A stretch of DNA of 55,692 bases from a virus (taxonomy: Duplodnaviria; Heunggongvirae; Uroviricota; Caudoviricetes). The notes below the pieces were generated by a model. It was given only the letters and a program-made list of their open reading frames with translations. It searched no databases and was not told where the DNA came from. Both the position numbers and the translations under genes were made by a program. Below are positions 12,707 to 48,047 of the stretch, one piece after another. Each line of letters opens with the position of its first letter. The stretch's first letter is position 1. Location: IMG/VR virus record IMGVR_UViG_2693429768_000005; one strand, written 5' to 3'.

Positions 12707-12823
12707 ATGAAAATAGAAGTTTTGGCGCTAATAATAATGGGATTGATAGTATTTGGCGTTCATGCTGTAGATCTGGACTGGAAAACGATAGCGGAAAATA
12801 TAGCATTAATGGAAATGGAATAA
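12707..12823 (+). CDS. small single-helix membrane peptide (38 aa)
   Basis: ATG after AGGTGA; MKIEVLALIIMGLIVFGVHAV...; just upstream of terminator. Confidence 0.35.
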   Translation: MKIEVLALIIMGLIVFGVHAVDLDWKTIAENIALMEME

Positions 12824-28657: not shown

Positions 28658-28723
28658 TTACGATAAAGCCACCATAGTGATAACAATCGCAACAACCAGG
28701 AAAAAGAAATCAAGCCATTTCAT
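28658..28723 (-). CDS. mini-ORF H (21 aa, MKWLDFFFLVVAIVITMVALS)
   Basis: AGGAG-N7-ATG; hydrophobic helix. Confidence 0.45.
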   Translation of the reverse strand: MKWLDFFFLVVAIVITMVALS

Positions 28724-42324: not shown

Positions 42325-42505
42325 TTAACACCTCGACGTATTGCTCAAGATGCCATTTACCAACCTCGTCATCTTCCTCATCAAATAATGTTACCTGACC
42401 ACCTGGCCCAAAAGAAAAGGCAGCTATAATAAATTTATACCCATACCACGTGCGGATCTTTTCGCCGCCTTTTAAATCTTTAACTTTCACTAATTTTATA
42501 GCCAT
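42314..42505 (-). CDS. hypothetical protein (63 aa)
   Basis: ORF. Confidence 0.3.
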   Translation of the reverse strand: MAIKLVKVKDLKGGEKIRTWYGYKFIIAAFSFGPGGQVTLFDEEDDEVGKWHLEQYVEVLNEN

Positions 42506-42768
42506 ACACCGAACATCCCATTCAGTCCGGCGAACAATTTCCGCCAGTGGTTTTCAGCATAAGCCCGGAACGGCTTAACGCGAACATTGCGGGCCTTCAG
42601 TTCAATATCATCAAAGTAGCGCGGTTCGATGATTGTTCCGTCCAGGTATTTAACCACTAGCGGGCGCTCTAGATCGTCATACATCTTATTCAGTACAACC
42701 AGGCCAGGGTCATCACGATATTCAGGCAACACAACAAGATCACCAGCCTTTGCATCCCATGTTTTCAT
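42496..42768 (-). CDS. hypothetical protein (about 90 aa)
   Basis: ORF; ATG overlapping stop of upstream mini-ORF. Confidence 0.35.
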   Translation of the reverse strand: MKTWDAKAGDLVVLPEYRDDPGLVVLNKMYDDLERPLVVKYLDGTIIEPRYFDDIELKARNVRVKPFRAYAENHWRKLFAGLNGMFGVWL

Positions 42769-42887
42769 CACAGCAATCCTCTGAAAATAAAGCTAACCAG
42801 CGCAGCAAATGCGCCACAAGAAACAACCACAAACAGGAAGCAAATAATGCAAAACGCGACAGTCACAATATCCTTACCGACTTTCAT
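42768..42887 (-). CDS. small single-helix membrane peptide (39 aa)
   Basis: MKVGKDIVTVAFCIICFLFVVVSCGAFAALVSFIFRGLL; GAGG SD. Confidence 0.4.
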   Translation of the reverse strand: MKVGKDIVTVAFCIICFLFVVVSCGAFAALVSFIFRGLL

Positions 42888-42895
42888 GATTGGCC

Positions 42896-43009
42896 TCACA
42901 TGTTAGTAATGAGTTTAATGATCGCTACCGTGATATAAAGAGATACGCTGAGATACAGCACGGCGATAGATAAAGCCGCAAGCAATGCGGCAATTTTTGC
43001 AAAGCTCAT
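42896..43009 (-). CDS. small single-helix membrane peptide (37 aa)
   Basis: MSFAKIAALLAALSIAVLYLSVSLYITVAIIKLITNM; ATG overlaps upstream stop. Confidence 0.4.
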   Translation of the reverse strand: MSFAKIAALLAALSIAVLYLSVSLYITVAIIKLITNM

Positions 43010-43245
43010 TTGCCACCCTCCGCAATTAACTTATCAAGCCATTTGTTATTAGCCAGCCGTTCTTTGTCACTACCAAAACTGTTTCTGCTTAGAAGCTCCT
43101 CTTTTGTTAATTGCGGCCACTTATCCGTCCACCCAGCCGACGTATCGAACTCATACAGACCGCCGTCAAAAGTAACAAAGTCATCAGCCGTGTCAGGCAC
43201 TTCTTTATCAACTTCTTTTTCTTCGATCATGATTTGATACCTCAT
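43006..43245 (-). CDS. hypothetical protein (79 aa)
   Basis: ORF. Confidence 0.35.
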   Translation of the reverse strand: MRYQIMIEEKEVDKEVPDTADDFVTFDGGLYEFDTSAGWTDKWPQLTKEELLSRNSFGSDKERLANNKWLDKLIAEGGK

Positions 43246-43959: not shown

Positions 43960-44612
43960 TAACCGATCTCCCCGTTAAGCTCTTTTAAGCGAATGTCATA
44001 AACGTCTTTCGCTTTCTGTTGCTGTTCTGAATCTTTAGGCAGTAGTTTCCAGCACTTCCCGAAGATCTCGCGTAACTTGTTAGCGTCCTGCGCTTTCGCT
44101 GCCGCATCACAGAAACGCGCTAACACCTCATCAGGATTTGGCGGCGCTTTCTGCTGCTGTGGTTTCTGATTAGGTTGTTGTTTTGGTGGGGTTTTCTGCT
44201 GGCGAGGCTGCTGCCCTGTCTGCTTAGCGTATGCGTCAGTATCAGGATCTCGCGCATCGTCAATACAGAACAATCCGTTCAAAGCATATTTACGCGCGTA
44301 ACTTGATGTTGCTCCTGTTAACTGGCTTGCGTCCATTCCCTTCTTGCTTTCTTCCTCCCTGGCGTAAGCCGTTACCGCTATCTCATTCTCACCGTCGCTT
44401 AGTGTCGCAGTGGCTTTCACATAATAGCGATTGCCGATCAGGATAATTTCATCACTTACAGTCAGCGTAATACTTTGAAGCAGTGGTTTGACCGCTTCTA
44501 AAATATCCTCCGCCGACCTGTAATTGTATCCGCCGAAATTATTACGCTGATTTTTCGGCGCGTTCAGCGTTTGCTGAATCGTCCACAGTTTTTTATGTAA
44601 CTCTGTTTTCAC
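43959..44612 (-). CDS. erf: Erf-family single-strand annealing protein
   Basis: 217 aa; ERF-like N-terminal domain (recalled) with Gln/Pro-rich linker; adjacent to ssb; GTG start. Confidence 0.75.
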   Translation of the reverse strand: MKTELHKKLWTIQQTLNAPKNQRNNFGGYNYRSAEDILEAVKPLLQSITLTVSDEIILIGNRYYVKATATLSDGENEIAVTAYAREEESKKGMDASQLTGATSSYARKYALNGLFCIDDARDPDTDAYAKQTGQQPRQQKTPPKQQPNQKPQQQKAPPNPDEVLARFCDAAAKAQDANKLREIFGKCWKLLPKDSEQQQKAKDVYDIRLKELNGEIG

Positions 44613-44731
44613 TCTTTAATCTCCTTCGCTGTTAACACTATGTATAAGGCTTTATTCGCGGCGCTCCACATTTCGGCATCGTGAAGCATTTCCGCTACCG
44701 CAAGTTTGAATTGAAGCGCCTCGATAACCAT
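44609..44731 (-). CDS. hypothetical protein (40 aa)
   Basis: GGAGGT SD; stop overlaps erf start. Confidence 0.3.
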   Translation of the reverse strand: MVIEALQFKLAVAEMLHDAEMWSAANKALYIVLTAKEIKE

Positions 44732-44761: not shown

Positions 44762-45052
44762 TTAATGGTAACGGACTTTATCCAGGGGTTTCTCCCCTAA
44801 ATGGCGTGGTTGCGTTGCGTGGTAGTAGCTGCCGCTTTCATTTTCCGTATACCATTTTACTGATCCTTTGCGACGTTCTTTAATGCTATTTGGTTTGCAC
44901 CTTTCCTCGTTTGCAAATCGAATAGCTTTATCCACATTGTCTGTTTTATTAATTGCAGGTGATGATTTTCTTTCGTTTTCTCTTTTTATCCTTCTGCGTT
45001 CCCTGGCGTTCATTTTGCTATCACATTTTCCATACATAATTGTAACGCTCAT
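44762..45052 (-). CDS. N-like transcription antiterminator (Arg-rich motif)
   Basis: MSVTIMYGK...NARERRRIKRENERK resembles P22 gp24 / lambda N Arg-rich motif (from memory); first gene of leftward operon beside cI. Confidence 0.6.
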   Translation of the reverse strand: MSVTIMYGKCDSKMNARERRRIKRENERKSSPAINKTDNVDKAIRFANEERCKPNSIKERRKGSVKWYTENESGSYYHATQPRHLGEKPLDKVRYH

Positions 45053-45394
45053 AATCTGATCTCCGTATATCCTTGATGAAACTTAATAAAAAATCATCTT
45101 CGTTAATTGCCGCACTTCCAGTGGCTGACCAGATTTTTAATGAGCGGCTTAACATCTTTCAACTAATCCCGCAATCATCGCCGTTCCCGGCGTGACCTTG
45201 CTCACTCCAAGCAAGCTGACTCGTCGCCTTGCGTGCGGTTTCGTGGGGGATGTAACGCTTTAAACACCCCATGCGCCTTGTTATCAGTGCCGCTTTCGGT
45301 CCCCCCATTGGGGAGTTACTCCACGGTTGACAAGGTGTTAAGCCTGATTTTTAAAGTGCCAGGAAGCCGCTTTTGTTACCTGCGCCCTTCCTTT

Positions 45395-45430
45395 GACTCG
45401 CAATATACGCCCCGTAAAACACCGAGTCAA
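45395..45430 (-). promoter_or_regulatory. candidate pL-like early promoter with flanking inverted repeat
   Basis: minus-strand TTGACT-N17-TATATT; 8-bp inverted repeat TTGACTCG/CGAGTCAA brackets it. Confidence 0.5.
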
Positions 45431-47945: not shown

Positions 47946-48047
47946 ATGGACGGTAAACACGTTTTTGCCCTGGTCTTTGCCATCGCTGCGGCAATCGCTG
48001 TTAACGTCGCTTTGTTCGGCGGTTTGTTCCTTCTAGTCAATCCATAA
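47946..48047 (+). CDS. small single-helix membrane peptide (33 aa)
   Basis: GAGAGGA SD; MDGKHVFALVFAIAAAIAVNVALFGGLFLLVNP. Confidence 0.4.
   Translation: MDGKHVFALVFAIAAAIAVNVALFGGLFLLVNP

Follow-up and report, generated by a model that had tools for sequence, protein, structure and literature searches.

Small proteins made of a single transmembrane helix commonly regulate larger membrane proteins (PMC12648545). MgtS (31 amino acids, aa), MgtR (30 aa), MgrB, AcrZ and CydX are shorter than 50 aa and combine one transmembrane helix with a few flanking residues and no catalytic domain; bacterial small membrane proteins are often missed by annotation and act via intramembrane contacts (PMC12648545). 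The type I toxins Hok/Gef, Ldr, TisB, IbsC, ShoB and DinQ are likewise small and hydrophobic, with a single helix, and are in some cases linked to prophages (PMC12648545). Lambda Kil is a small product of an N-dependent early operon that also holds recombination genes. Kil is not a transmembrane peptide. Here we describe two adjacent open reading frames (ORFs), ORF1 and ORF2, in IMG/VR virus record IMGVR_UViG_2693429768_000005 (55,692 nucleotides, nt; this whole stretch is called the window below). Both are conserved, and each is predicted to encode little more than one hydrophobic helix. Like MgtS and its counterparts, their products are very short and carry few residues outside the helix; unlike them, they are phage-encoded in an antiterminated early operon, and they have no sequence similarity to any of these proteins. 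With Kil they share the type of operon, but neither ORF matches phrog_2055, which is instead matched weakly by a separate ORF of the same operon. Coordinates of all features are collected in Table 1.

Sequence comparison assigns the window to the mEp021 group (mEpimmI) as a prophage. Over 5 kb around the pair it is 88-90% identical to mEp010, mEp515, mEp021, mEp554, mEp044, mEp013 (all Mexican E. coli phages) and MagusPhagus, and the 750 bases centred on the pair are 100% identical to a prophage of E. coli MIN12. Related sequence was found in 35 of 5,426 complete E. coli genomes and was chromosomal every time. The mEpimmI group comprises Nus-dependent, non-lambdoid temperate siphoviruses of human gut origin, and is reported to be as common as lambdoid phages in human gut isolates (PMC11893012).

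The original prediction proposed looking at whether the two frames are conserved in relatives. We therefore took the interval from 7 phages, 15 RefSeq prophages, about 45 IMG/VR contigs and 26 metagenome contigs. Throughout this set the pair sits between homologues of gp22 and gp23, with one frameshifted exception. ORF2 is intact in all of these relatives (about 90), and ORF1 in all but one metagenome contig, in which a run of five A residues reads as four, a homopolymer frameshift. ORF1 occurs in 34 nucleotide haplotypes encoding 25 proteins and ORF2 in 39 haplotypes encoding 34 proteins, with substantial synonymous divergence. Where length varies, it does so in whole codons (35, 37 or 39 aa for ORF1; 38, 39 or 40 aa for ORF2), and variable columns concentrate at codon position 3 over the whole 242 nt. 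Pooled Nei-Gojobori estimates of the proportions of synonymous (pS) and nonsynonymous (pN) differences gave pS 0.53 and pN 0.16 for ORF1, with a ratio of nonsynonymous to synonymous rates (dN/dS) of 0.19, and pS 0.36 and pN 0.15 for ORF2, with dN/dS 0.33-0.35. The 90-aa gene next to them has a comparable value (0.19). For the two remaining sense frames dN/dS was 0.8-2.1 overall (1.1-2.1 for ORF1), and these frames are open in no haplotype of either ORF.

Within the proteins, particular residues are fixed. In ORF1, K5, Y19 and S23 are invariant, and together with A7, A11, A16 and T27 they make up the invariant or near-invariant set; in ORF2 the invariant residues are F12, C13, F17, F19, V22, G25, A28, A29, I34 and G37, and the region of G25 and A29 carries a GxxxA motif. 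Such positions point to a sequence-specific constraint beyond bulk hydrophobicity, and the conserved small and polar ones among them look typical of helix packing. The hydrophobic helix character itself is kept in the most divergent forms, at 47% identity.

Initiation signals are preserved too. The two ORFs occupy the entire 242-nt interval that separates the upstream 79-aa gene from the downstream 90-aa gene. Before ORF1, a CGGAGG motif is present in 101 of 101 loci compared, and at the other end the overlap between ORF2 and the 90-aa gene, as TGATG or ATGA, occurs in every one of these loci. The spacer between the two ORFs measures 8 nt in the window and 2, 3, 7, 8 or 9 nt among relatives (GGCCAATC, GGTTAATC, GGTTTAT and the like), nearly always with GG directly after the TGA. 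Because the spacer varies in this way, we take the ATG as the start of ORF2; the GTG start given by a mechanical ORF list, which would make ORF2 43 aa long, is not conserved, and the spacer length variation would put it out of frame. The overlapping stop and start codons would tie translation of the pair to the flanking genes. The description of the pair as translationally coupled thus holds strictly at the two outer junctions (ATGA and TGATG) and only loosely at the inner 8-nt junction.

In E. coli STEC308 (NZ_CP091020.1, locus 1904-2617), a gene for a 237-aa KilA-N protein lies exactly in the ORF1-ORF2 spacer, with both ORFs intact. A KilA-N gene is annotated under the match in STEC306 and STEC307 too; STEC308 is the strain examined. 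That both ORFs survive the insertion is what one would expect if each were a gene module of its own, and the junction between them therefore serves as an insertion point for accessory genes. In our view ORF1 and ORF2 are very probably real translated genes.

The original prediction described ORFs of 37 and 39 aa, each a single hydrophobic helix, lying between larger early genes, and this was borne out by the sequence, by Kyte-Doolittle analysis and by AlphaFold2. The grand average of hydropathy is 1.81 for ORF1 and 1.97 for ORF2, with Kyte-Doolittle maxima over 19 residues of 2.39 and 2.85, respectively. AlphaFold2 models ORF1 as one uninterrupted helix over residues 3-35 (predicted local distance difference test score, pLDDT, 95) and ORF2 as one uninterrupted helix over residues 4-38 (pLDDT 91). 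Basic residues, K5 and K32 in ORF1 and K2, K5 and R36 in ORF2, frame a hydrophobic stretch of 26-29 residues. Both products thus have the length of small single-pass membrane proteins (up to about 50 aa; 35-40 aa in relatives), and their predicted helices are of sufficient length to cross the membrane. The positive-inside rule speaks mildly for an N-in/C-out orientation. On these predictions, the two are probably single-pass inner-membrane peptides with a cytoplasmic N-terminus.

Table 1. Features of the window discussed in the text, with positions counted from its first nucleotide.
Feature	Position	Strand	Description
ORF1	42896..43009	minus	37 aa, MSFAKIAALLAALSIAVLYLSVSLYITVAIIKLITNM; TGA stop 42896-42898 inside range; ATG (43009-43007) overlaps TGA stop of 79-aa gene (43008-43006), as ATGA
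ORF2	42768..42887	minus	39 aa, MKVGKDIVTVAFCIICFLFVVVSCGAFAALVSFIFRGLL; ATG at 42887, TGA stop 42768-42770 inside range
Shine-Dalgarno GGAGG of ORF1	43017..43021	minus	7 nt 5' of ATG, within 3' end of 79-aa gene
Shine-Dalgarno GAGG of ORF2	42894..42897	minus	spans ORF1 stop, 6 nt 5' of ORF2 ATG
TGATG junction	42766..42770	minus	ORF2 stop overlapping ATG of 90-aa gene
Hairpin GCCGCA-TTGCT-TGCGGC, then TTTATCT	42975..42991	minus	in ORF1 codons 7-15; TERM_2 of mEp021
Upstream 79-aa gene	43006..43245	minus	phrog_28542, weak DUF2737 match; coupling partner of ORF1
Downstream 90-aa gene	42496..42768	minus	phrog_28396; coupling partner of ORF2
Promoter-like site TTGACT-17-TATATT	45430..45402	minus	just downstream of repressor gene and its terminator
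boxA-like CGCTCATTA	45130-45160	minus	upstream of N-like gene
N-like antiterminator gene	44762..45052	minus	phrog_271
Kil-like 40-aa ORF	44609..44731	minus	strong match to phrog_34942, weak match to phrog_2055 (Kil septation inhibitors; E = 0.0017); flanked by N-like gene and erf, whose GTG start it overlaps
Antisense 62-aa ORF (rejected)	42750-42938	plus	opposite ORF1 and ORF2
Holin, lysozyme and lysis genes	~30221-31371		assigned by size and order against mEp021 gp46-48
Tandem array	28658-29336	minus	8, possibly 9 hydrophobic ORFs of 20-33 aa; between 183-aa gene and small terminase gene
Mini-ORF	47946-48047	plus	33 aa; 97% identical to mEp010 gp14; after replication-protein gene
Mini-ORF	12707-12823	plus	38 aa; ends small plus-strand cassette in tail-gene region

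The pair is part of a same-strand gene run of about 44 kb. From the promoter-like site, the order is boxA-like element, N-like gene, Kil-like ORF, erf, ssb, abc2, the 79-aa gene, ORF1, ORF2 and the 90-aa gene, followed by more small genes, methyltransferases, nin genes, Q and late genes. In mEp021, Gp17 drives antitermination at nutR1, nutR2 and nutL, and a transcription unit with nutR1 and nutR2 runs from the N-like gp17 via erf, ssb and abc2 to the nin genes, Q and the late genes (PMC11893012). The boxA-like sequence of the window is consistent with the published nutR1 site. ORF1 and ORF2 lie about 2.4 kb downstream of the early promoter, past the N-like gene and predicted terminators, and a consensus promoter scan of both strands over 42.7-43.1 kb found no promoter-like site in or just upstream of them. 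From this gene map we infer delayed-early expression after infection or induction, dependent on Gp17 antitermination, with the pair silent in the lysogen. The placement in an 'early-left' operon was right as to the early operon; 'left' is an analogy with lambda, and the literature treats the unit as that of nutR1 and nutR2.

The stem-loop within ORF1 covers codons 7-12, which read Ala-Ala-Leu-Leu-Ala-Ala. GC-rich hairpins occur in most variants, as would be expected from alanine codons; the hairpin itself is lost in some clades, and many variants lack the U-tract. In some members of the group the hairpin may weakly terminate or pause transcription, which would make downstream expression dependent on antitermination. 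The mEp021 terminators t1, t2 and t5 are stated to have been shown experimentally (PMC11893012); t2 may be the ORF1 hairpin.

What might such peptides do? Our preferred reading, which we hold tentatively and a little short of an even chance, is that they specifically modulate a membrane protein of the host, or of the phage, from within the bilayer, perhaps jointly. The pair would be made, in dependence on Gp17, from the long early operon that starts at the promoter by the repressor gene. Each product, with hardly any residues beyond a predicted transmembrane helix and its one or two flanking lysines or arginines, would insert in the inner membrane, and its activity would be confined to the bilayer because there is no room for a soluble domain. 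There it would bind, helix to helix, to a host inner-membrane protein or complex, or ORF1 would bind to ORF2. Modulation of the target would follow the example of the E. coli proteins MgtS and MgrB and would serve host takeover early in infection, or counter-defence.

Several observations weigh against this interpretation. Conserved positions did not fall significantly on one face of the helix (P = 0.18 for ORF1 and 0.34 for ORF2), so that nothing speaks positively for a defined interaction face. The gene context suggests no partner; the neighbours are without known function. Comparative inference is shallow because the family is limited to one phage group. Lastly, the antisense frame that shares wobble positions with the pair has a dN/dS of 0.27 opposite ORF1 and 0.34 opposite ORF2; the ratios are similar because these positions are shared, and selection by itself cannot assign the strand. 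The strand call follows from the start and Shine-Dalgarno signals, the universal openness of the two frames and the direction of the operon.

A different possibility is that ORF1 and ORF2 are membrane-damaging toxin- or holin-like peptides which, like TisB, IbsC or Hok, would form pores or depolarise the membrane early, shutting down host metabolism or helping to time lysis. In size, in having a single helix and in the shortness of their charged flanks they do fit small membrane toxins (PMC12648545), and NCBI annotation labels the downstream 90-aa gene 'toxin-antitoxin system toxin subunit' in many genomes. We found no match for that gene in Pfam, NCBIfam, PADLOC or PDB sequences that would support the name, and its relatives are limited to the mEp021 group. 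For the pair itself, searches of Pfam and NCBIfam (E <= 0.1), PHROGs and PADLOC (E <= 0.1) gave no match of any kind, toxin and holin families included. Type I toxins have a separately regulated, processed mRNA, whereas ORF1 and ORF2 are embedded in an operon and linked to their neighbours by overlapping stops and starts; the consensus scan found neither a promoter of their own nor an antisense promoter-like site or RNA gene. The lysis cassette lies elsewhere, about 11 kb from the pair. We consider a toxin or holin role unlikely. Inhibition of cell division is possible as well, but a Kil-like ORF is already present in the operon.

ORF1 and ORF2 could also be superinfection-exclusion or DNA-entry blockers, located in the inner membrane and keeping competing phages from injecting their genomes, as T4 Imm and Sp or HK97 gp15 do. 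They are predicted membrane peptides of a temperate phage, and the group does invest in exclusion functions, namely Lpp lipoproteins (PMC11893012). However, exclusion in the group has been experimentally assigned to another protein (PMC11893012), library searches including PADLOC revealed no homology to known exclusion proteins, and expression in the lysogen is unlikely given the distance from the early promoter and the lack of a local promoter in the consensus scan. Such a role thus seems improbable. It is very improbable that the two ORFs are functionless translated spacers, which would keep the mRNA covered by ribosomes for coupling and against Rho-dependent polarity: this would account for the overlapping stop and start signals conserved at both ends in every locus, but not for purifying selection on amino acids as strong as in the neighbouring gene, nor for invariant residues and a hydrophobic helix retained at the lowest identity observed. 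That the conserved element is instead an RNA structure (the TERM_2 hairpin) or the antisense 62-aa ORF is hardly credible: an annotated mEp021 terminator does fall in ORF1, and the antisense frame has the low ratios given above and, opposite ORF2, is uninterrupted in 35 of 39 haplotypes, but neither the U-tract nor, in some clades, the hairpin is conserved, which leaves TERM_2 unsupported as the conserved element, codon-position-3 variation is not confined to the outside of a structure, no Rfam match was found in 42.7-43.0 kb, and the antisense ORF, which opposes a long unidirectional operon, is ruled out by stops (in 33 of 34 ORF1 and 4 of 39 ORF2 haplotypes) and by the lack of an ATG with a Shine-Dalgarno sequence.

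We also looked for relatives beyond the mEp021 group. A tblastn search with ORF2 over 50,697 phage records returned just the seven group members. The corresponding search with ORF1 returned no matches, known orthologues included, presumably through low-complexity masking, and is uninformative. Pattern scans of 185,579 GTDB species, one genome per species, gave no relatives; HMMER over 1.84 billion cluster representatives gave just ORF2's own cluster and one frameshifted call; and a metagenome search recovered the same clades and no others. With queries this short, relatives below about 45% identity are undetectable, so that absence is weak evidence. Within reach of these methods, the pair appears confined to the mEp021 group.

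Both peptides fall below the 40-aa minimum of the word-indexed protein search, for which a concatenated ORF1+ORF2 query was used; its sole matches were three frameshifted ORF2 gene calls. These calls, from Logan assemblies, diverge after FLFVVVF, at window positions ~42815-42825, where most relatives have a run of six T residues and the window has TTTCTT instead. Assembly errors at the homopolymer are the probable cause.

Both ORFs already appear in databases, where they are uncharacterised. Both are called in PHANOTATE-based records of mEp010 (gp29/gp30), mEp515 (gp31/gp32), mEp554 (gp27/gp28), mEp044 (gp27/gp28), mEp013 (gp28/gp29) and MagusPhagus (CDS0113/0112). In the record of the archetype mEp021 the interval is empty of genes, and the predicted terminator TERM_2 is placed there. 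PGAP leaves the interval empty in most RefSeq prophages and calls ORF2 alone in two; E. coli UMNK88 is annotated with a coding sequence for a 40-aa ORF2 variant (WP_000868625.1). The mEp010, mEp515, MagusPhagus and UMNK88 entries are direct orthologues with 47-100% identity, the same position and the same coupling, and show no substantive difference from the pair described here. The ORF1 sequence of the window is identical to UniProt A0A0K3F824, and the exact sequences are found in public protein collections on 767 (ORF1) and 199 (ORF2) contigs, under the labels 'hypothetical', 'uncharacterized' or 'putative membrane protein'.

The original prediction regarded ORF1 and ORF2 as a further pair in a larger set of single-helix peptides of this genome. 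The window contains 8 ATG ORFs of 30-60 aa that are this hydrophobic, against 0.57 +/- 0.74 in simulated sequences matched to it in composition and length. The excess over chance is real; the ORFs are not one sequence family. What the pair shares with the others is a physical type, not membership of a gene family: an hhalign comparison of ORF1 with ORF2 gave a probability of 1.9%, so that they are not paralogues arisen by tandem duplication, and neither resembled the ORFs of the array at 28.6-29.3 kb when sequences were read side by side, with no formal comparison. The array, said to have nine members, contains eight clear tiny hydrophobic ORFs and a possible ninth, several of them beginning M-x-(D/E/A)-(Y/F). 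The mEp021 record lacks annotation in this interval; the mEp010 record annotates part of it (gp79-82), from alternative starts that give longer ORFs. The length of the interval varies among relatives, with 67-94% covered. Two further mini-proteins had been named. The one that follows the replication-protein gene is conserved in mEp010, while the one in the tail-gene region has just its N-terminal 20 residues, about half, in common with mEp010 gp107. The count of such peptides, given as at least 13, comes to 12-13, and 13 is not secure.

A bolder extension would have the pair form a heteromeric intramembrane device and the 12-13 mini-ORFs together form a membrane micro-proteome that reprograms or disarms inner-membrane machinery of the host, such as membrane-bound defence effectors or channels for DNA entry. 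We regard this as decidedly improbable, and we know of no such strategy described for temperate coliphages.

Phages often carry small membrane proteins, and ORF1 and ORF2 are an ordinary instance; the two point to no unusual principle, and their value is incremental. They are two conserved genes missing from the mEp021 record, from most RefSeq prophage annotations and from PHROGs, and they should join the gene set of the group. If a host membrane protein is indeed their target, the pair could provide a new small inhibitor or probe. In a tractable E. coli K-12 phage (mEp021/mEp010), it offers a compact and strongly conserved test case for early single-helix phage peptides.

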